Below are positions 25,147 through 47,400 of a DNA stretch of 48,680 nucleotides, in pieces; position 1 is the stretch's first letter, and each line of letters opens with the position of its first letter. The notes under the pieces are model-generated. The model did not search any database and had not been told where the DNA came from. It worked only from the letters and a program-made list of their open reading frames with translations. Made by a program: the position numbers and the translations under genes. The stretch is from assembly GCF_000485595.1 (NCBI RefSeq), contig NW_014577076.1:930727-979406 (forward strand), read 5' to 3'. The stretch is from Priapulus caudatus (Eukaryota).

Positions 25147-26409
25147 TCTATGATTATGTAATATGTCTGATACCGTCTTGCTATTAATGAAATATTGGTT
25201 TTGGCAATATACGAACAAAGATTGCCATCAATATTGACTCCATCACCATTCTAGAAATGACGCGCTCACCTCGCTTACTTTAAATGTTTTGGCATTTTAA
25301 AATGATTAGAATATTTCGATAGCGCCTGGAATTACCCTTTCCATTTTCACGTCGTCACATCTAAATTGTGTTGCTGTCCAATAACAGGGGGCATCACTTT
25401 AGATAAATAGTTATTGCTTGATGCTCTCCGTTCGCGTTAGCACGCGAAAGTTTACAGTTTTAGGGAATGTAGTCATCGCGCTCTATACATTTCCAATCGT
25501 GAGCTGTTCTCGCAATGATAAGTCATGTGATGACATGCGCAAGTCTGTAGACTTAGTCACTACGCACGGATTCGTACATGATGTGTGTTTATATTTGTTA
25601 TTACAATCACAACATAAGTTTCGCGCTGGCCGTTTTATGAGGGAATGAGGCCACGTGCTTTCTGTATTCCGTCAAGTAGGCAGCCAGGCGGGCGTGCAAG
25701 CGGCCGGACGTGCGGGGAAGCATGCAGGCGAGCGATTATAAACCAGCAGCAGCGGCAGCATCTTTTCCCGGAAGGAGATCGGCCGTTTGACTGCGTTAAC
25801 CCGATACAAATGTGTCGGCAGGGGATGACATTCACATGCAATGAGCTCGCAAGCATAACGCGCGAACATCGCAACGGTTCGTGATTCCTAACCTAGGTCG
25901 AAGAAGTTGCAGGACAAGAAGTGGAGAGTTTCGCGGGGGGGAAGAGGAGGAGTGAAAGTGGCGACACGGGCGGGAATGGAAGTGGAGTAAGAGGAGCGAG
26001 AAAAAATATGTCTTAAATCGGTGTTGTCGATTGTAGCCGAGTTATTAGCTGGCGACTTTCATTGCGAATTTATCTAGAGCTCGTTCATTTTTCGCGCCGT
26101 TATTCGAGCCGACTTCTTGTGCTGGATTTGATTTATTTGGGTCACATCGGCACGTGGCTTCAACCACGTAGGGATTACGGACAGAGCCTCTCTTCCTTCC
26201 GTTGTCCGCGCAAAAACTTCGCAACTCGGTTCAGGCGCGGCCCTGCCTTGCATCAGACGTCTCTCGCGCTGGCAGGTGGTTCTAATAGCAACCGCTGCGC
26301 GAAATAACCACTTGCGTGCGCGTGAAAGTCGGCGCAGATAATTAGAGCTATGATGGCTGCAGGTCGACCGGGAGGGCTCCCCCGAGCTAACGCGCGGTCC
26401 GCACGTTGT

Positions 26410-26689
26410 CTACCAGCCCTGTGCGAGCATTACTCTACCAGCCCTGTGCTAGCATCACTCTACCAGCCCTGTGCTAGCATCACTCTACCAGCCCTGTGCT
26501 AGCATCACTCTACCAGCCCTGTGCTAGCATCACTCTACCAGCCCTGTGAGAGCATCAGTTTACCAGTCTTGTGTGAGTATCAGTCTACCATCCCTGTGTG
26601 AGCATCAGTCTACCATCCCTATGCGAGCATCAGTCTACCAGCCTTGTTTGAGCATCAGTCTACCATCCCTGTGCTAGCATCAGTCTACC
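26410..26689. repeat. 25-bp minisatellite, ~11 units (TACCAGCCCTGTGCTAGCATCACTC)
   Basis: Units start at 26411, 26436, 26461 ... 26661 with 25-bp periodicity. Confidence 0.95.
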
Positions 26690-27040: not shown

Positions 27041-27430
27041 ATGACAACGCATGGACCTGTGCTTCTGCGAGTGATCGTCAGACTACTATGGCTGCTGTGG
27101 ACGGCGGAGCTACTGCGGGCCGAAAACTTTACGATAGGCTATATCACCGGGAGCGCCCGCAGGCCCGGCAACAACGAGTACAACCGGCCCGGGCTGGCCA
27201 TCAGCGGAGCAATCACGCTCGCTGTCAACGAGATCAACGCGAATCCCGATCTGTTGCCCAACGACTATTTGAACTTTGCGGTGGCCGAAACGTACGGCGA
27301 ATCCGCCGAGAGCCTGAAACAAACTGCGCTGTTTTGGCAAAGCAATGCGGCAGTTATTATTGGTCCGCAAGAGACGTGCGTTTGCGAGGCAACTCTAGCC
27401 GGATCGTTTGGAATTCCAATGGTGTCATAC
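27041..27430 (+). CDS. Gyc32E: rGC coding exon 1 (signal peptide, MTTHG...GIPMVSY)
   Basis: ATG at 27041, hydrophobic signal ending ...[10 protein letters not shown], donor tac|gtaagt, phase 0. Confidence 0.93.
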
Positions 27431-31017: not shown

Positions 31018-34000
31018 AAGTAAGAGAGAGATGAATAAACTGGATGTTTTTAGGACTCTTGTCTCTATCCTCTCTTGATTGATTCCTCTGCTTTATGTTC
31101 GCTAAATTAGTCGGTAAGCTTGAAAATATCTGCGATTTGCATGACTGCGATTTTAGATATGAACTCCCTGCCGTGTGTCGTGCGGACGTATGAACGTCTG
31201 TCGCGAAGCAAAGAACGTGCTTTACTGCTAAGCAGTTTCCGGCTCTACAATAAATCAGTAGTTATAGAATTCACTATCACCTTATTTGCCGGCTGTAATA
31301 TTCCGAGTCCATATAATCAGGAGTGAATAATAATAGAATCTATTATTATTCACCCTGATATAATATTCCTATAGTATAAATATAATACCCAGTACAGTCA
31401 TCGCCGTTATGTGTTTCAGTACTGTCCGGAAACAGTGGTATCAAACAAGTACCAATACCCAACGTTCGCCCGCACGCGACCACCGGACTATCAGATCTCA
31501 AAGTCACTCGCAGCGCTGCTGAAATACTTCAACTGGACGACTGTAGCCGTGCTCAGCAGTGACGCGTCCGATTTTAGCAACGTCGCTACTACTATCATCA
31601 AGATTCTGAAGGCGTCTGGCATTGACGTGGCGACACACAGGACCTGGCAAGGAACGTATTACCACGATTTCACCGAAAACCCCTTCGTTAAGCTGGTCGA
31701 AGAGACTTTAATGGACGCAAGAAGTAAGTGCTCGAGAGTTTAGTGTGGTTTATGATCGCCCTACCTTCCTGGCTGGTACGGTGATTCGCTTAATCACGAT
31801 ACAATGTTTAAACGCTGAATGGAAGCTGTAGTTAAAATCACTACATGTAAGCTTGCGATGTCATGCAATTCCTTCCTATTATGCAACGCTCCCATCTATG
31901 CGATGCTAATAATTATGTCATGTATATAATGCAACCATGTCGATCCACAGAGTGATATAATGTATAAATGAAACAATAATATCTAGCGTAACGTTTTGCA
32001 TAATCGCCCCTACAATTTCATGTAACGCTACTATATCGTGCTGTGCCGCCATATCGCATAATCTCATCTAAATCTCATTAACACGACTCGCAATATCGCA
32101 TATCGTTTACACGTCTACATTATATCTCTCTAACTCAGTATGCTCTAATCTCACTAACGTATGCCATAGAATAATTGCATTTACGGCATTATACGTTCTT
32201 TGTAACGCTTCTGTGCGCCATGATAGAGAAAAATCACACGCAACGTTCCTTCATATTAAATAACCTTCGTAGCGGTGGAGCGTAAAACACCTACTTCGGC
32301 ACCTACTTTACACCGAAATAAATCGGACAAAAATAACTATGAAGGTCTTGAAGAAACTAATCCAACGGTCGTTCCCTATTGTCTGACACACGCGGGTCGT
32401 TGAGTTAACAGTATTAAATACTTAAAAGCGAAATAGAATGGCTTTAACCCTATACCTCATCGTCAAACGTAGACATATTTACACACGCGTCTACGAACTC
32501 TTCGTGACATGTGCGGTAAATTATACCCCTATTTGCAGTAGTAAGTAGTCTATACCATACACGGCTTGTTTAGGTTAGCATTAATTGGCTCGTAGATGCC
32601 GTTTTACCAATGGTCACTAAATCAAATGAATCGTTCACTGACCTTTCGTATGGTCTGAGTACTGACGGCAGCTTTTATGTGTGACCCGGGTGCGCAGCGT
32701 ATGTGCCCATTCGCACCATGTGTTGTCCAGGGTGTCCATGTGTTTCGTTGATTTTATAACGAGTATGTAAATTAATACTTAACTGACGAAAGATCGGACA
32801 TACTACTTTATAATATGATTCACTCTAACAGCAGCGGTATAAAGCCGTTACTTTTTGAAGTTATATTATGTTATACGGAATGTACTTTCCACTTTTAGCG
32901 TAGCATCCGCAAATAAGGGGAATGATTTTGACGTTGGTCTAGGCGTATTATGAATATGTAAGTTTGCAGCGGCATACATTTGGACATTTTTTGCAGCAAA
33001 TATCGTATTTAGCTTTCAGCAAACTATCATAATCTTATTAATCTTATGTTATCTTCTCTATTCATGGAGCACAATATCGTACTAGGAGATTAAATTGAAT
33101 GCTGCAATTGGGTTTATTTCATGGTGCAGGTTATGAAATTACGATATATGCGCGTAAGAAAATTCACGAACTTTCTTGAGCTGCTAATGGGTATTTAAAT
33201 GCGACGGCTTCAAACGAGCACCTCATTGCTAAACTAATCGCTTTATCAACCAGGACACATCTGTTTCATATCAGCGTTTTTGAGGCGAGAAGGCAAGGCA
33301 GTTGTCGCAAAAGTGCAATGAAGCTACTTATTCCATTTGACAGCGCGCAAGATCAGTCTTTGCCGCCTACGTAATTATAGACTCAATTTCTAGGCGAGGC
33401 AGTTGTTCGTGGCCGTTGTAAAAACACAGAGAACCGTAAATGTCATAGTAACTTAATTATAGAATCAGAAGCGTGCTTTCTTAAATGGACTTTTTTAGTG
33501 TATGCCGAAGGAAGGTAATTTTAACATGCTGCCCTATTCTTACGTTTCCCACACGATAAGCAATAAGCAATTTTTTTATGTCGATGCGAAAATATTCGCG
33601 GCTATAATACAGACGGATTTCTCATCTTGTTTAACAAGGTTCTTACTGTTGTTTTTAAATTGTTTGACATGTGCAATACTCACAGAGTATAGTAACCTTG
33701 CCGAACAGCTGCATATTACGCATGCACTTTAAGATGTGTCTTAAAACGTGAGAAATGTCTACCGGCACCCTATCTATGGTAGAAGTCACCGCTGTAAGCT
33801 GCGTACGTGATCGATCTCAGCTAGTCGAATGAAGTGATCCATAGCATCGGTTTGAAATGCCAGTTTAGTTGTACGGGCGTATAGATAAAATAAATAATAG
33901 CGCTTGGATTTACAACATAGCTCGCGGATTACAGAAACAATTTTAATTACCGATATTAGGGCATCCTTAACCCTGCTCCGAAATACATTATTATGTTTAC

Positions 34001-34474
34001 ACGCACATATACGAGCATAACACACGCGCGCGATGTCCCGGATGTTACACCATGGTTCTAATTGCTAGTAATAGTAATCGTTGCTGCGACCGCGGCACTG
34101 GTACTGGTGGTACGCCGTAGCTAGGACTGATGCCTTCATATATATTGATATTTCAGTATATGTTGTCATCGGGAAGCAGACAGAGTACATAGGATTGATG
34201 ACATACATGGAGGAGAGACAACTCCTCAACGGCGACTATTTTGTCGTTGGGGTTCATTTTGATCAGTACAACCCTGAAGATCCAGAGGAATACATAAAGG
34301 GTAGGATCGCTGTTCTTCGCAACTCAACGTCTCTAAATAACATTTTATTTTGTACAAAAACATAAAGGTATAAAGCCTATACATATTTTAAAAAAAACAT
34401 CCGACTCTTTATTTGATAAAATATACAATAAACACGCGCACGCACGCACACACGCACGCACGCACGCACGCACG

Positions 34475-34549
<75 letters not shown>

Positions 34550-36966
34550 ACACAAGCACACACACACGCATTATATATAATCTTATTTTACATTGCATAG
34601 GTAATGCTTATACTAAAGATGTCTTCCCCTTTCACTACTGTAACCAATTTGTAACAAATCCCACAACCCCCAGAGTAAACCCCACGCAAAAACTAAATTG
34701 AATTATAACCTTGAAGCATTAGGAACTGTAAAACGTGGATAGCAAGCCTGATGAAAATCTCGAATTCAAAATAGCTTTTGTCGCCGGTTACAAAATGTCG
34801 TTTAAAACATGTTTTTCAAAAGTTATATTCTCTAGGCAAAAGCTTGGATTAAACTTAATCCAGAGCAAGGTATGGCTGCTTGTCATTTATGTATAAACGC
34901 ACAATCGCGAAGTTCTTTTGTTCAGTTCGTGCTGTGGTGTTCGTCTCTGCATTTTCTTTATCGTAAAGCGACATGTCGCCTCCGGTGTGTGCTGGATGTT
35001 TTCACTCTTCCGTCGTAGGTGTGCTACAGACGCACGTTGACACGCGCAGTCGCAGAGCCTTTCAGTCTTACATCGGGATCATCAGCTCCGCGCCCGTGTA
35101 CCCGGCGTTCCAGCACTTCTCGGCGAAGGTAGACAGTTACCTGGAGTCGCCACCGTTCAGCCACCCCAACCCGTTTAAGACGAAGGGACTGGATGTCCCT
35201 CGAAAGGTACGCACGCGCTCGTCTGGCGTGAAAACTACAAGCTAACCTGCGTTATTAGTATACGAATGTGATTATCTCATCAAATGAGCATCAGCGTAAA
35301 TTAGAAGACACACACATCGTGCGTTAATACTTATTACACGGCATCCATATGTGCAGTGTAATTGTGAAGCATGAGACCTATACTCAATAAACGATAAGGT
35401 ACCCTATTTACTGTTACGGGCAGATGACAGGTAAAATACACACAATTTCTCATGGTATTATGATATCGCAAATATTGCATAAACTGCCAACATTGTTGTC
35501 ACGTCAGTGTAAAAATATAATATGGTTTATATGACTTCATGATCTCATTAGATCAACCAGGGGGCGGCACACCTTTACGACGCAGTCTACCTATATGCTC
35601 GGGCTGTGCATCAGGCAGAAGCCAACCACGATGATCCACTCAATGGTCACGTTTTGATCAATTACATGAAAGAGCAGACGTATCTGAGTAAGTGAAACGC
35701 AAGATTACGAATGGCGCTGACTCAACGCGTCGCAAACTCGTGAACAGCGTAGTCTATAACACAAATATCAAATAAACGTTATATGTAACAGTTATTTACG
35801 CACACACCAGATGCAATACATCCTCTCGCTGGGGTTTATTCTCTCATTTACCATCATTAGCCATCATGGCCATCATTAGCCATCATTAGTTACATTGGCC
35901 ATCATTAACTTCAAACTCCTACTTTCTTCATATTCACATCTCACGCGATGCATCCAATAAAAGCTTAGAATGCCCCGAAAGCACGTAGCTTCTGTTTCAT
36001 CTCAACGCAATTCGTTTCTCTCGCCCTCTAAATCGACCGGCGTAGGTGCGATGGGATACATGACGTCGACGGACGAGAATGCTGACGCGAAAGGCAACTA
36101 CACGCTAATTGCGTTCAGTCGGCTTCCGGGAGCGGAAGCGCGATACGGCCTGACGCCCGTGGGCACGTTCGAGCATATGGAGCCAGGCGAGGGTGAAACA
36201 ATCGGCCTTCCGGTAAGATATGTATGTATTATTCGATCTAACACACGCTTTGCAGTAAACTCGCTCTTGTACTAATTGTGACTGCACGTATGTACGTGGG
36301 CGTGTGCGCGTGCGGGCGTGCGTGCGTGCGTGAGTGTGTGCACGCGCGCGTTTGTTCATTTCACATTGCGTTGCATGTCGTATTCCCTTACATCGCGACG
36401 GCGATGTATCATGGTAAATTAATTTGAAATTATCATGTATGCGTGTGGCGTGCGCGTGCGCGCGCACATTTGTGTGCTGACTGCGTGCGACTCTACCTTC
36501 TGCCGTTCGGTGTCATAAATATGTTTTACCATATATCAAACAAGTCATAACTGTAACTATATGTACGTTTGCAAATCAAGCATTATATTGGTGGGTAATA
36601 GACGGACGTGTACACCCGATTTGTTCCTATTCTCAAAACGCATGCATGTTAAATCAATAAAGTAGCTATCTGTGTTGCGCATGAATTAGATACAGCATTG
36701 TAAATATAATATATAATATCAACTATATATTATAAGTGTGAATAAATTTATCATAACCGCGTAAACGCGCAACATTGGATGACGTCACGCGTGACGCATC
36801 GCTGCAGCTTGTCCGCTGACGACGCTCATGTTTGTCGCTGCAGCGTCTAAGAATTTACGACCGCATCCCGTGGCGCGGTAGGGGGCCGCCAGCCGCCGTG
36901 CCAGCGTGCGGCTTCCGTGGCGTGAGCTGTCCGAACAACAACATCGTGGGTCAGATCTCTGTGTGA
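27041..36966 (+). CDS. Gyc32E: Receptor guanylyl cyclase Gyc32E-like gene, 7 coding exons: signal peptide plus ANF-receptor-type ligand-binding domain (483 aa if ending at TGA 36964-36966; otherwise the 5' part of a longer gene)
   Basis: join(27041-27430,31420-31723,34157-34300,35019-35206,35552-35687,36046-36212,36844-36966) is 1452 nt and open. All introns are GT-AG with matching phases 0,1,1,0,1,0. Motifs [60 protein letters not shown] and CGF-G-C match the recalled insect Gyc32E ectodomain. Confidence 0.88.
27750..28345. repeat. (TCCA)n/(TTCA)n/(TTCG)n microsatellite in rGC intron 1
   Basis: Visible repeat; source of the HPSI ORFs. Confidence 0.95.
29048..29435. repeat. (AACTTCTGGT)n followed by (GTAACG/GTGACA)n simple repeats
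   Basis: 10-bp repeat at 29048-29109, hexamer repeats at 29160-29435. Confidence 0.9.
30920..31030. repeat. (TA)n(GA)n microsatellite
   Basis: Visible repeat. Confidence 0.95.
31318..31357. mobile_element. 40-bp palindromic micro-MITE with perfect 7-bp TSD
   Basis: atataat|caggagtgaataataatagaatctattattattcaccctg|atataat. Confidence 0.7.
31420..31723 (+). CDS. Gyc32E: rGC coding exon 2 ([10 protein letters not shown]...LMDAR)
   Basis: Acceptor tttcag|, donor a|gtaagt. Encodes [17 protein letters not shown] and FNWT. Confidence 0.93.
34157..34300 (+). CDS. Gyc32E: rGC coding exon 3 (IYVVIG...EEYIK)
   Basis: Acceptor tttcag|, donor g|gtagga. Encodes the GDYFVVG motif. Confidence 0.9.
34432..34570. 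repeat. (CACG)n/(CA)n microsatellite
   Basis: Visible repeat. Confidence 0.95.
35019..35206 (+). CDS. Gyc32E: rGC coding exon 4 (GVLQT...DVPRK)
   Basis: Acceptor cgtag|, donor aag|gtacgc. Encodes AFQSY and PPFSHPNP. Confidence 0.9.
35552..35687 (+). CDS. Gyc32E: rGC coding exon 5 ([18 protein letters not shown]...QTYL); absent from the ORF track
   Basis: Acceptor cattag|, donor a|gtaagt. Encodes the LYDAV hallmark of ANF-receptor domains. Confidence 0.92.
36046..36212 (+). CDS. Gyc32E: rGC coding exon 6 ([20 protein letters not shown]...IGLP)
   Basis: Acceptor cgtag|, donor ccg|gtaaga. Confidence 0.92.
36844..36966 (+). CDS. Gyc32E: rGC coding exon 7 ([40 protein letters not shown]); absent from the ORF track, 3' end uncertain
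   Basis: Acceptor ctgcag|. Encodes the juxtamembrane W..G.PP..P.CGF.G..C motif. Ends at in-frame TGA 36964-36966, or splices earlier at gt|gtgaga (after 36962). Confidence 0.82.
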   Translation, partial: RLRIYDRIPWRGRGPPAAVPACGFRGVSCPNNNIVGQISV

Positions 36967-38744
36967 GAGAAGAAGAAGCTGCAGACGAAGAACGTTAACC
37001 CTAGCAGCCGCTGGGAGACGCCGCGGCAGCAGCTGTTCATCGCGGCGAAATCCCACTATATTGATAACGCGAACTTATAACGATAGCGACAACGTCACGT
37101 TACCATGATTATTGTGAGACATAATTTAAGGTAAGTTGTGAAGATGTAGAACGCGCTTTGGGAAAGTGTTTACCTATAGATGTAAATATGAGAGGCAGTG
37201 TAGACTTCTTGGATCCGTATAGCTAAACATGATTATTTTATTGTCGTATAAATTATGGAAGAACAGTACCGCCAGTCGATGCTATAGTTAAGGTTATCGT
37301 TATGATTAAAAACATGTGAGAACATTTTACGCTATACGTGGGTATGGAGTTCTGACTGTTCTGATAGCCCGGTGGTATTAACTATTGAGTTTAAATCGCC
37401 ATTATTAATCCTATAGTTGTTTCCAACATGCAGAAACTGGCCTTATGCTAATGTAATTCATGTCCGTGTAAAAATTAGAGCTATGTACTTGTTATTTGTA
37501 AGGGCTTAATCCTGATAGTATCTTATGCATTTGATTATTATTGCGCACTACTCATTGCACTGTACGCTTGAAAATAAAATCGGTGAGATCCAGGTACGCA
37601 CGTAGCAGTGAATATTGATTGACACCAGCGCAATCACGTAGTGACACCTTTAATTTCTCTATCGCTGTTGAAATGCCTACAGAAATTAAGTTATACGATT
37701 TGTCAATTGATTGCACCAGCTATCATTTAACGGGAAATGACCCGTAGGGACGTAGAGTGCAATTTGCACATTGTGCGAATATTGTCAAGATAAACGATAT
37801 ATACATTTTGGGAGTAAAGACGGTTTGAAAGGCGGAACAGGTGGAATAGGCGCCTGAAATGTGACGCGCGCTGATGAAATGGGGGCATGTTTATTGCGCT
37901 TGACAATGTCGACGTTATTTTCTATCGTATTTGAGTTACATGATAAATTCTAACAGCATTCTAAAGCGATTTTACCAAAAACGAAATTAAAATGTAACGA
38001 AATTACAATTCGAAGGCGCTGTAACGTTAAATGACGCTTATTGTCCAGCCATTTCATTAACTCTGTATATTCCTGCTGTTCTTCCTCTTGCCAATATCCG
38101 CCGACCATTTTCACCGGACCGAAGTTACTGTCGGTGCTAATTTGTCGGATATACACATTCTAGAGACCTATATGCTTGAGTATAATGACATTTTATGTTA
38201 ATGCGAAATCTATATGTGCATAATATATAGCGCAAACGAAAACGTATATGGGCCTTGCCATTATTGTACCGGGCATGATGAAGTATTAATTATTATCACC
38301 GCTTGTTGATGATAATGGGTTAAAAGTTTATAATTGTGGTGTATAAGATTAATATCGTAGCACAATTGTGTTGCAGCTTTGGATGTATCAGAGTTTTATT
38401 TTCGCAAGTGTGCTGCATATTCTTGGATTGTAAATAATATTTATTTTGGAAACGGCTTGTAGTGTTTGCAGCAGTACTAAATGAATAAAGGATATACTGA
38501 CTCAGTGCGTGTCTCCATGTGGTTAATGTTAAACTAGCTACTGTAGCCTTGGCGAATTTTGTAGGCTATTTATAGGCACAACTATTTCGGAACTTGGCGT
38601 GATCGGTTTGAACACTTTGTTTACATTCTTCTCGTTTCGATCAGATGAGAGAGCAAAGAATAACAAACATTGAAATCTGTGAAGCTGATTACTTTACAAG
38701 TATAGCAATAGATCAGCTAGTTGGTATAAATTTAGCATATTCCG

Positions 38745-43147: not shown

Positions 43148-43554
43148 CACAGGCACTTGAAACGTCTCAATAAAAAAGGTAAATAAACACGAAATGTATT
43201 TACTACCAAAGTCTTAATGTTTCTCTACGCTATTTCGCCTATTATTGTCGATAACTTGCTGTAAATGCCGTTTAAATGCTCATCTGCAACACACAAGTAC
43301 ACCGCACGCACCCCTGTGCACAAACAACAAGAATAATAGACTATTACTCTATTATTCTTGTTGTTTGTGCACAGGGCGTGCGAGCGGTGTACTTGTGAGT
43401 TGTGTGTTGCAGATGAGGATTTAAACGGCATTGACAGCAAGTTATCGACAATAATAGGCGAAATAGAGTAGAGAAACATTAAGACTTTTGTACTAAATAC
43501 ATTTCGTGTTTATTTACAATTATATTTTTTATTGAGACGTTCCAAGTGCCTGTG
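43148..43554. mobile_element. 407-bp foldback MITE (almost entirely inverted repeat) with target-site duplication
   Basis: cacaggcacttgaaacgtctcaat... pairs with ...attgagacgttccaagtgcctgtg; centre gaataataga-ctattac-tctattattc. TSD ctaccaa (43141-43147, 43555-43561), or 9-bp gctaccaac if the termini lie one base further in. Confidence 0.9.
43509..43533 (-). terminator. Candidate polyadenylation signals of the EH-like gene
   Basis: AATAAA on the - strand at 43528-43533 and 43509-43514, the first such hexamers I found after the stop codon (~240 nt downstream). Confidence 0.45.
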
Positions 43555-43773: not shown

Positions 43774-44466
43774 TTACGGCGAGTCACTTTCGATCAGGTA
43801 GAACTGCTCGTTCTGACAGTTGGGGTCGGCCGACAGCCCGCTGCTGTCTCTACATGCCATCGCGCACCCATTGCTGTCGTACGACTCACTCCCGTACTGG
43901 AACACGCACTGAACACATTGCTCCAAGCAGACGATGTACGGATGCATGCGTCTGCGTATATGGAACACCTGTAGGCCGCCACGACTGGCGGCGCTGACCT
44001 CAGGAGCATCTCCCATCATCAGGTCATCGGAAGCTGGCTGATCCGCCGACAAATCTTCGGACAACGCTGCGGCGGCCGACTCGGTCGCCTGTCGGCGAGT
44101 GCGAATCTGAGCTTTCTGCAGATAGGATCGCAGCGCCGCGCGCTTCTCTCGCACCTTCTTAATGGCGCCCTCGCCGGCGGCATCCTTGGCGGAGAATCTC
44201 TCGGGCAGGCGTTCATCGATTGCATTATCGTTCGGCCAGTCGATCGGCTTCTCTTTGCATCCCTGCCCGCCGCTACGTCCGGCAGTCAGGATGCACCAGT
44301 TTGCGCATACCTCCATGCTTTCGCGGCCCTTCTCAAAGTTTTCCCGACACAGAAAGCACTCCTCGATGCAGTCCATGAGTGGGAAGCTGTAGCAGAGGCC
44401 GTGGACAATGCACAGCGCTAGCACGAGGCCCGTGATCATCGATGCCGTCCCCATGATTGGCTTCAT
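43774..44466 (-). CDS. Eh: Secreted neuropeptide precursor with two tandem eclosion-hormone-like domains (230 aa, single coding exon)
   Basis: GC-rich ORF with signal peptide (aa ~1-27). Two domains with identical spacing C-x3-C-x2-C-x13-C-x3-C-x11-C (C33-C70, C180-C217); insect EH is C-x3-C-x2-C-x12-C-x3-C-x10-C. Cleavage sites REKR, RTRR, RRR. Acceptor-like tttcag immediately before the ATG. Confidence 0.85.
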   Translation of the reverse strand: MKPIMGTASMITGLVLALCIVHGLCYSFPLMDCIEECFLCRENFEKGRESMEVCANWCILTAGRSGGQGCKEKPIDWPNDNAIDERLPERFSAKDAAGEGAIKKVREKRAALRSYLQKAQIRTRRQATESAAAALSEDLSADQPASDDLMMGDAPEVSAASRGGLQVFHIRRRMHPYIVCLEQCVQCVFQYGSESYDSNGCAMACRDSSGLSADPNCQNEQFYLIESDSP

Positions 44467-47400
44467 CTGAAAGCGGACGACGAGTAGCTTTTAATTATAA
44501 CAGACCGACGCTATAGTGGTTTGCAAAGCTTTCATAATCGCACGCGTTTATCCATCCAACCAAAACCGGTCAACACGGCAACAGCCAATCGGGAAAGACT
44601 TGTCTGAAAGTTCTAAACATCGAGGATAAATCGACATGTTGTTATTCGTTCATGGTTGTCATTTTCTGCCCCAACTTTTGAATTCATCGTACACTATTTT
44701 AGCAATACAAATCACAATTATCTTGCGCAGTTCCTTTTAGACTTAAATCTCTTTTTTAAATTTAGAGAACACAGTATAATCGCGGATGATGTGTAGTGCT
44801 GAAAATGTTTTTAGTTGATAAAGGTGTTTTAACGGGAACCTGTAAAAACGTTTAGCGTTTAACTAACCGCTATGAATGGCTTCACGAGGTAACGTGCTTA
44901 TTTCACATCTCAGAGCAAGGTATCGAGTGTTCAGCATTCAAATCTAGAAACGAGAATCGTCGTGATCGAACTAGATGGGTGAGATTATTCTAGAGCTGGC
45001 ATACCTATGCGCGAACGGCAAACGAATCGGCCAAAGACACGTTGAGCGTCGCGGGGCATAGAGATAGAGTGGCTCGGCAAAAGATAATTACGTTAAGGTC
45101 GTATTGTCAGCACGCAGTCGTAAAGATGGAAGGCGTGCTTCGAATTCCGCGCGTCTAATCAGTGCCGCGATCTTGTCTATATACAACCACCGGCTGCCAC
45201 GACGCGGCTGACTTCAGCCCTCTAGATGATTGCTGCCAAGCGGGCCGGCTCATCCATCCGTCTTCCCCCGCACTCGTCTAAACCACGCACACATATATAC
45301 GGCCACCAGCATGCATGCCAGCAGCCCACCACCACCTTGACGGGCGCGCGCGCGAGCGTAACTTTATGCTCGCTATAAGCGTGAGCTTGCATGGAGAGTT
45401 TGTGTAACAGTGTTGTAATCAGCGATCGTAAAAATGCGTTGGCGTTGGGGGGCTGGGCGGCAAGTTGTTTCGGCCCACTCATTTATAGGACTTTCCGGCT
45501 CTCAACTACTTCCAGACAAGCTATGCTTTGGTCATAGCTGGCGGAGCGAATCTGTATGGCAAGTTGGTGCGAACTGATTAGGTTCCGGTCGCGCTGTGAA
45601 GCCAGGCAGCGTATAACTTGTGAAATCACTTTCTCGTGCGTTGAATTCCACGACGTGCAGGGAGTAATCGGATTAGAACGGTATGGTCTAAGATAAGTGT
45701 GTACACGTTAAGAAATCGCAAATCCGCAGGCCGCGAGTTTCCGACATTACTCACGTTGTTTATCGTCGGTTGATCAGCTCGAAATATCCAATTAGTTAAC
45801 CGAAATGACAAAGTCTGTCACCGCGTCGAGTAAAAACGAGGACCGTAACAACTCACAGCTTCTGTTCCTGTTTAGCAGTATGATGTACGCGCGCGAAGAA
45901 TGCCGACGATTACAGGCAGTTCAGCCACTTTTTTAATGTCATCGTATATTTATTTTTATTCACAATCCACAACGGGTGCAGTGCCATTGCGAATCTGTTA
46001 TGTTCAATAAGATTGATAGTTTGCATTAATTTCTCCTAGTAATCAGTGCAGCTGTGTTAATACAAATAAACGAAGCGATATCGTAGGCGTAAATCGATGA
46101 TTATTAGGATATTATTGCGCATATTATTTTCATATAGTGATGCGTGTTGAAATCGACACACCTTACTGTTTGCGCGGCTTTATTAACTTCCAATCTGGCG
46201 TAACTACTGTCGAACGCATTGGCTAATGCAAAAATGATGGAACAGTGTCCTTCATTAGCGTGAAAAGCTTAGTATTAAAACGCAATGCAGACACGTGTGT
46301 TTAAGATTCAGTCTCATGCAGTGACACTGAAATATACATATAATAGCCGTGAATTGAGAGACCGTGCCCGTATTCTACCATATACTGTGTGATTTCGGGC
46401 AATGGCCCACGCCTCTCCAGTCTATGTCTGTATATTAAGAATTTCTACTTTATTTTCTGCCCGTCTTCTAAAACTAACCACCATAGTCACGCTTACAATT
46501 TTAAAAATACGAAAGTCCAAAGTCTCACTTACCAGATTAGAATATTCTATCATTAGCAACCGAACTATACATTCTCTAACACTCACTAGATCTTTTAATT
46601 TCTCATCGTAATTTCAACACGCCAAAATAACAATCGTATAGCGATGGGTTTGTAACACTAAAAATAGGCAGACAGGCTACTGTTAGAAATCTCATTTACA
46701 GATATTACTAAGGATACGCACTCATACACAGATATAGCACAATGAATTTATTCTAACCTTTCTCATCTAAGCATGGCGTTTTGTTTTGTGTATCATACCT
46801 ATGGTATTTCGGTAAATCACTAAGGGTGCAAGCACAATAACTATAAATCGTACTCATGCTGTTGCAGTGTCCTACCTTTGCAAGATGAGTCACAGGACAC
46901 TCCACCACGGCCAGCACTCGAAAACACTTCCACACTCTCTATTCCCTGCCGTCGTACTTGGTTATATAGATGGCTTCAGCAGAGAGCGATCACGCGTCAG
47001 TCCAAGAGCCTGGCGCCCGCTGAAAAACGAAACACGGTGCATGTGTGTGCGTGCTCGCTCCTTATGGTGCCAATTCCGATTAGGCCGGGGAATATTGATT
47101 GGGAAAAGTGACGTCACCCTAAGAGCGAAAGTTCGATTACGCCGTTTAATGTGGAGCACATTGGTAGCGGTGGCGGCGGTGGTGGCTGTGGTTGCGCTGG
47201 TGTAGGGCTTGTGAAGAGGCAGGCTGTGATAGGCTACCCGTAGGTACTCCTTCGATAGAAACCACTTCGTCACTTAGAGAATAATTGATTATCGGACGGC
47301 GACAAGCCAGAGACTCCGGGGCAGGCAATCGGTCGAGTAACTATCGCGATGCCGCCATTAGGCAGTATTATTTTATGATTCCATTAAAGATACACGTTAA

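Follow-up and report, generated by a model that had tools for sequence, protein, structure and literature searches.

A gene for an eclosion hormone receptor-type ectodomain that ends before the transmembrane helix in Priapulus caudatus, and its probable role as a secreted hormone-binding protein

The locus

The present analysis concerns a 48,680-nucleotide stretch of the genome of the priapulid Priapulus caudatus (assembly GCF_000485595.1, contig NW_014577076.1, positions 930,727 to 979,406 of the forward strand), referred to below as the window and numbered from its first letter. Its plus strand carries a gene for the ectodomain of a receptor of the eclosion hormone (EH) type that stops where a transmembrane (TM) helix would be expected, and beyond this gene the minus strand carries an open reading frame (ORF) for an EH-like precursor. 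The ectodomain gene consists of seven GT-AG exons running from an ATG at 27041 to a TGA at 36964-36966 (+), and encodes a protein of 483 amino acids (aa) identical to the RefSeq model XP_014668348.1 ("guanylate cyclase 32E-like isoform X2", Priapulus caudatus), whose scaffold measures 1,446,534 bases. The 90% cluster of this protein holds two members, RefSeq isoforms of 483 and 486 aa with a common stop. The parts of the gene are as follows.

27041..27430, plus strand: coding portion of exon 1; the N-terminus is hydrophobic (about residues 1-27, likely a signal peptide), and the ANF_receptor ectodomain begins here
31420..31723, plus strand: exon 2
34157..34300, plus strand: exon 3
35019..35206, plus strand: exon 4; the junction of exons 4 and 5 is present in 3 reads of RNA run X2
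35552..35687, plus strand: exon 5
36046..36212, plus strand: exon 6; use of another donor, at 36222, would lengthen the product by the 3 residues that distinguish RefSeq isoform X1 (486 aa)
36844..36966, plus strand: terminal exon 7, coding part; cag acceptor, juxtamembrane C465/C472, an 11-residue tail and the TGA, with no TM helix
36967..38498, plus strand: 3' untranslated region (UTR) of about 1.5 kb, uninterrupted with exon 7, in which read depth climbs toward the 3' end
37573..37578, plus strand: AATAAA named in an earlier reading of the window, with no drop in depth
38484..38489, plus strand: AATAAA directly before the end of coverage, the likely polyadenylation (polyA) signal in use

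That earlier reading, made from the sequence only, had claimed that the frame halts where the TM helix is expected. The claim is borne out by a terminal exon that opens at 36844 and reaches its TGA 11 residues past C472, in a protein that RefSeq predicts in identical form. The motif CG[FYW]xxxxC is found in 123 of 126 long relatives, and in 121 of these 123 the top hydrophobic window begins 4-9 residues past the second Cys, which agrees with the figure of about 10 residues on which the claim had leaned. The single hydrophobic stretch of the Priapulus protein is N-terminal (residues 7-25). ANF_receptor (PF01094) matches residues 56-411 with 156 bits, and three N-glycosylation sequons are present. 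No TM helix was found in the protein (the top hydrophobic window past residue 60 scores 1.04), nor did Pfam detect a kinase-homology or cyclase domain in it, and thus the product as encoded is not a receptor guanylyl cyclase and, having no cyclase domain, cannot itself make cyclic GMP. Because its N-terminus is hydrophobic and a TM helix is lacking, the ectodomain protein is likely secreted.

The sequence-only reading had further reported no TM, kinase-homology or cyclase exon on the plus strand between 37000 and 48680, and a profile search upholds this. Hidden Markov models (HMMs) were made from 123 full-length relatives, one for the TM/juxtamembrane stretch and one for the intracellular region. 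Neither gave a match when the window was searched in six frames (the top scores were -0.6 and -5.1 bits, respectively), and no TM or juxtamembrane remnant was found by this profile search 3' of the TGA; an ectodomain HMM recovered 7/7 exons in the window. A short GC-rich stretch at 47140-47205 (+), in which a hydrophobic run follows a Met, matched neither the TM profile nor Pfam and could be the signal-peptide exon of another gene.

Two further features of the 5' part of the gene may be recorded. A tandem array at 26408-26689 (25-base unit, 11.3 copies, 89% matches) lies about 350 bases upstream of the ATG. At residue 115 (exon 1, about window position 27383) a His that is conserved in the EH-receptor clade is replaced by Cys, so that the mature chain contains five Cys; the one left over could link a dimer.

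Transcript evidence

The ectodomain gene is covered in raw RNA-seq runs X2 and X3, which come from one study of 51-base single reads with both directions about equally represented; depths given here are the two directions summed, for X2 and X3 in that order. A third run, X4, was picked like these two by its species label, and has depth in only 1 of 30 bins, a GT repeat, which was not taken as evidence on expression. A fourth, X1, is RNA by guess only.

Depth is 0 in all five bins of intron 6 (36506-36835), then 4.7/3.1 at 36902-36967, 8.0/7.0 directly 3' of the TGA, 9.2/9.3 across the GT at 37131 and 40/42 at 38000-38123, dropping to 0.14 beyond 38496; 38498 is also where a contig of run X1 ends. 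Depth thus begins at the exon 7 acceptor, climbs, and ends just after the AATAAA at 38484-38489, as expected of a plus-strand, polyadenylated terminal exon. The transcript of the soluble form is real, and it is the sole form seen. The AATAAA at 37573-37578, on which the sequence-only reading had placed weight, is present as a motif and is crossed without a drop in depth, so its use as the polyA site is not supported; the transcript ends at about 38498, after the AATAAA at 38484-38489. The perfect donor aag/GTAAGT at 37131 was considered as a splice site and rejected, as depth does not drop there.

Of the two routes that the sequence-only reading had offered, a soluble 483-aa ectodomain is the one favoured by the reads, which cross the TGA undiminished, by the stop common to both RefSeq isoforms and by a second ectodomain-only paralogue (described below). 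The other, splicing after 36962 as the main route, is not supported: the possible donor tgt/GTGAGA (phase 2) exists as sequence, no read supports splicing there, and depth rises past the candidate donors. A junction from exon 7 to a TM exon was likewise not seen, although the power to see one was low, as only one of the seven known exon ends inside the stretch analysed first showed up as a loose end, and in a second read analysis (junctions 36950 and 36963, with the same share of the runs) repeat-derived reads filled the loose-end table, of which 54 rows went unseen. Across the TGA itself the reads match the genomic letters and list no alternative letter, gap or joint, at a depth of only about 3-8 per run.

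Six sites with another letter occur in the RNA runs within the 3' UTR (37244-38254), and none in the coding exons, where depth is far lower. Across introns 4 and 5 (35714-36043) depth is 0-1.3, as against 0 in most of intron 6, which suggests some unspliced RNA.

Family placement

The nearest long relatives of the ectodomain protein are 42-50% identical to it over >90% of its length and include, among the matches listed, D. busckii CG10738 and the Bactrocera dorsalis UniProt entry C7ACU1, which we take to be BdmGC-1. CG10738 has been identified as the EH receptor of Drosophila, orthologous to BdmGC-1 (PMC12393706). In a maximum-likelihood tree of 50 ectodomains hand-picked from the fetched proteins, among them no labelled D. 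melanogaster Gyc32E, the Priapulus protein falls within a 24-row clade (support 100/100) that also holds D. busckii CG10738, other arthropods, two molluscs and a tardigrade, while rows named Gyc76C-like fall outside it. The separation of Gyc32E, Gyc76C and EH receptors into different clades is stated by Gera et al. (PMC12611267). The name "guanylate cyclase 32E-like" is an automatic NCBI label, misleading and common to many members of the CG10738 clade, and the Gyc32E-type identity that the sequence-only reading had given the gene must be replaced, as its ectodomain groups with CG10738 at 100/100. By descent, to judge from its sequence, the protein is an EH-receptor ectodomain.

A set of 112 sites, each at least 90% conserved among 67 clade members, was used to gauge intactness. 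The ectodomain protein keeps 102 of the 112, and two more distant rows keep 80; full-length orthologues from molluscs, a tardigrade, a sea spider and a barnacle keep 0.82-0.93 of them, a span into which the Priapulus value falls. AlphaFold2 returned the protein with a pLDDT of 93.7 and a pTM of 0.91, only the last few residues being uncertain, and the 11 best Foldseek matches of this model are ectodomains of natriuretic peptide receptors (NPRs). Unlike this fold search, a sequence search of the PDB placed calcium-sensing and glutamate receptors on top. The protein is thus predicted to fold as a complete ectodomain of the natriuretic-receptor type.

A second Priapulus gene

A search for proteins of near-equal length returned 24 matches, two of them from Priapulus. 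One is XP_014668744.1, the product of a second ectodomain-only gene, 497 aa long and 47% identical to the first, which lies outside the window and, as its contig is equally long, probably on the same scaffold. It ends right past the juxtamembrane region without a TM helix, the first juxtamembrane Cys being replaced by Gly. In the tree XP_014668744.1 and XP_014668348.1 are sisters (support 100/97), with end branches of 0.64 and 0.77 for the two Priapulus proteins against a median of 0.58. The second protein keeps 96 of the 112 clade-conserved positions, and five such positions are changed in both (H75, E88, H115, Y176 and G400).

That two diverged genes are cut at the same place argues for an old soluble lineage, or for two similar losses, rather than for an error. 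It is conceivable that the TGA or the absence of the TM region arose in sequencing or assembly, given that the assembly is a draft with two runs of N elsewhere in the window and that read depth at the TGA is low. The RNA reads, however, follow the genome through and past the TGA, where no differing letter, gap or joint is listed for them, and the second gene bears the same truncation; an error is thus extremely improbable and has been largely refuted.

A separate full-length paralogue, which the sequence-only reading had proposed to look for, did not emerge. Among 120 of 132 long matches there was neither a full-length Priapulus member of the clade nor a longer product of the ectodomain locus, and what was found instead was the ectodomain-only sister. 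The underlying search covered about 8000 word-sharing candidates, with pieces of <265 aa and intracellular-only halves outside its scope. Of 316 fetched proteins, 170 reach the end of the juxtamembrane region, and 10 of these 170 have no TM helix afterwards, comprising three Priapulus proteins, three long models that continue intracellularly and four that stop where the ectodomain does, or close to it, and so may be fragments. No clear soluble orthologue from another animal was present among the 316. A 470-aa Gyc76C-like model from Epargyreus clarus (XP_072944061.1), with three transcript accessions and on a 17.9-Mb contig, ends exactly at the juxtamembrane Cys; it may represent a further gene of the ectodomain-only kind, or else a model cut short.

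The neighbouring peptide gene

About 5.3 kb past the 3' end of the ectodomain gene, on the opposite strand, lies the EH-like ORF.

43774..44466, minus strand: EH-like precursor ORF of 230 aa, convergent with the ectodomain gene; a hydrophobic N-terminus is followed by two six-cysteine domains with basic cleavage sites between them
44233..44385, minus strand: EH-like domain 1; Cys spacing 3-2-14-3-11; no Pfam match at E 0.1
43792..43947, minus strand: EH-like domain 2; Cys spacing 3-2-14-3-11; Pfam Eclosion, E 0.00097, 19.3 bits

The two domains are 31% identical to each other, and the Cys spacing of fly EH is 3-2-12-3-10 (supplement of PMC6660194). On this footing the neighbouring peptide may be called EH-like. 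The tie between the truncated receptor and the neighbouring peptides that the sequence-only reading had drawn is strengthened by the place of the ectodomain in the EH-receptor clade and by the EH-like character of the peptide. No relative of the peptide was found in the PDB at E 10, and the ESM Atlas gave no usable match for domain 2. An acceptor-like ttttcag abuts the ATG of the ORF, which makes a non-coding exon upstream of it likely, and minus-strand AATAAA motifs stand at 43533 and 43514. The peptide may already be known, as a figure legend in the NP-HMMer preprint names an EH alignment for priapulids and rotifers (10.1101/2024.07.20.604414). The word "caudatus" is absent from the searched part of the EH supplement of PMC6660194.

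Model of the complex

Two copies of ectodomain residues 28-474 were modelled together with EH-like domain 2. The complex scored 0.78 (runs 0.78, 0.88 and 0.78), the best of three controls scored 0.00, as did the other two, the runs agreed in at least 94% of contacts, and the partner had a pLDDT of 90. In calibration, 51 of 78 solved pairs passed the mark applied to such scores, as against 2 of 108 mismatched ones; for eukaryotes the counts were 39 of 65 for solved pairs that had no older like complex and 2 of 126 for unrelated pairs. Since the PDB holds no relative of the peptide, it is less likely that the result merely repeats a similar complex known to the modelling program. The modelled peptide contacts one protomer only, on a surface around residues 209-215, 281-284 and 329-344. 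The prediction supports binding of EH-like domain 2 by the ectodomain protein.

Discussion

The data point to a model in which the Priapulus locus encodes a dedicated secreted EH-binding protein, a buffer or carrier of the EH-like peptide encoded next door. This reading we consider probable on balance, and the role of a buffer is favoured over that of a carrier. The steps that we infer (secretion, origin by duplication, hormone binding, which comes from the model only, and competition with a receptor) would be as follows. An EH-receptor gene would have been duplicated, and the copy would have lost the step into the TM exon and adopted a downstream polyA site; this truncated copy would then have been duplicated again, yielding the two ectodomain-only genes. 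The secreted ectodomain would bind the EH-like peptide extracellularly, buffering or carrying the hormone. By competing with a membrane EH receptor, it would influence how large the hormone pulse at moulting becomes and how long it lasts.

Several observations, set out in this and the next two paragraphs, weigh against such a protein. At the end of the gene, the juxtamembrane Cys pair (C465/C472) is still kept, and an IVG resembling the start of a TM helix precedes a possible phase-1 donor, tgg/GTCAGA, at 36950, which is where the TM helix of the orthologues begins. In the RNA, one of the three raw runs (X4) has no depth on the gene, and because junction power was low a minor full-length isoform spliced beyond the window may exist, which 3'-biased libraries would further mask. 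It is possible, if rather unlikely, that the locus is the 5' half of a full-length EH-receptor gene whose exons for the TM, kinase-homology and cyclase parts are located past the end of the window. A long intron of that gene would then contain the EH-like gene, and the soluble form, made by intronic polyadenylation, would be the isoform prevailing in the RNA that was sampled. The Cys pair and the IVG, the low junction power, and the fact that no other full-length Priapulus EH receptor appears among the matches listed would all fit this arrangement. However, depth steps up rather than down past the candidate donors, both RefSeq isoforms stop at the TGA on a 1.45-Mb scaffold, an intron of >11.7 kb would be needed where the six known introns of the gene span 345-3989 nt, and the sister gene XP_014668744.1 is cut at the same place.

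Also counting against a decoy is that the signalling receptor with which it would compete was unlocated among the matches listed. A distinctly improbable explanation makes this the rule, in that Priapulus would have no one-piece EH receptor, and secreted ectodomains encoded beside the hormone gene would take up EH and present it to a membrane cyclase encoded by a gene of its own, either as a split receptor or by trans-signalling via another receptor guanylyl cyclase. The only two Priapulus clade members found are both ectodomain-only, as this would have it, and the modelled peptide, lying on one protomer, would leave other surfaces free. Against it stand the bounds of the search (about 8000 candidates, 120 of 132 long matches, at least 265 aa, on the annotation of a draft assembly), and a TM-coupled cyclase normally needs an ectodomain of its own.

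The remaining difficulties concern the peptide and the modelled complex. The sole Pfam family matched by domain 2, Eclosion (PF04736), is matched below its curated cut-off of 25 bits. The modelling job was unlike the calibration set (two copies of chain 1, a short peptide, alignments unused), and a pass is silent on which member of a family binds. At the 27 interface positions conservation is 0.52, against an average of 0.64, and the ectodomain protein matches the clade consensus at 6 of the 27 sites, as does the tardigrade orthologue. Several interface positions stay hydrophobic in character; as the interface is not enriched in conservation, it lends the model no independent support. It may be suggested that the gene is a functionless transcribed remnant, or binds a ligand other than EH, its adjacency to the EH-like gene being chance. 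The five clade-conserved positions altered in both Priapulus proteins and the unenriched interface are consistent with this, and so is the fact that 7 of 44 pairs of neighbouring genes drawn blindly reached the complex mark. Set against these are an open frame over seven exons, the retention of 102 of 112 conserved residues, end branches (0.64 and 0.77) to be held against a median of 0.58, a spliced and polyadenylated mRNA, and a strong complex score beside three controls at 0.00, and this explanation is regarded as improbable.

A secreted EH-binding protein would have partial parallels in known systems. Drosophila CG10738 and Bactrocera BdmGC-1 share with it an orthologous ectodomain, the clade and the juxtamembrane Cys pair, whereas the Priapulus protein lacks their TM helix, kinase-homology domain and cyclase. 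Gyc32E and Gyc76C belong to the same superfamily, in clades separate from the EH receptors. NPR-C (NPR3) has the same ectodomain fold; it is membrane-anchored, with a short tail for hormone internalisation, and holds one peptide between two protomers. A review describes NPR-C as a cyclase-less paralogue that lowers ligand availability, although a figure legend in the same source calls it TM-less, in conflict with the membrane anchor (PMC12394403). The Priapulus protein differs from NPR-C in having no anchor, and in that its modelled peptide sits on a single protomer. The vertebrate forms GC-B3 and NPR-Bi are truncated splice forms of GC-B without signalling activity, GC-B3 being described as severely truncated (PMC5579180). 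Whereas those are splice forms of a signalling gene, the Priapulus protein keeps the whole ectodomain, is the sole form seen and is represented by two genes. IL-18BP and IL-22BP resemble it in being separate genes for soluble, ectodomain-like binders of a membrane receptor's ligand, and differ in fold and hormone system. Drosophila Secreted decoy of InR is a further secreted decoy receptor. By analogy, the ectodomain protein would work like NPR-C or like a secreted decoy.

No published account of a soluble EH receptor or a secreted EH-binding protein was found in a literature search whose coverage left out most subscription journals, and no paper was found that cites the three accession numbers. 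Priapulids were omitted from the main survey of the EH pathway (de Oliveira et al., 2019; PMC6660194). The element of surprise is limited in that RefSeq already carries the protein as an automatic model and the principle of soluble decoys is known. The protein would offer a natural soluble reagent for EH binding and, with no EH relative in the PDB, the model offers a testable surface. EH drives moulting, and a secreted receptor ectodomain, if true, would amount to an extracellular control step in EH signalling; this extra step would sit in a phylum that bears on how the control of moulting arose.

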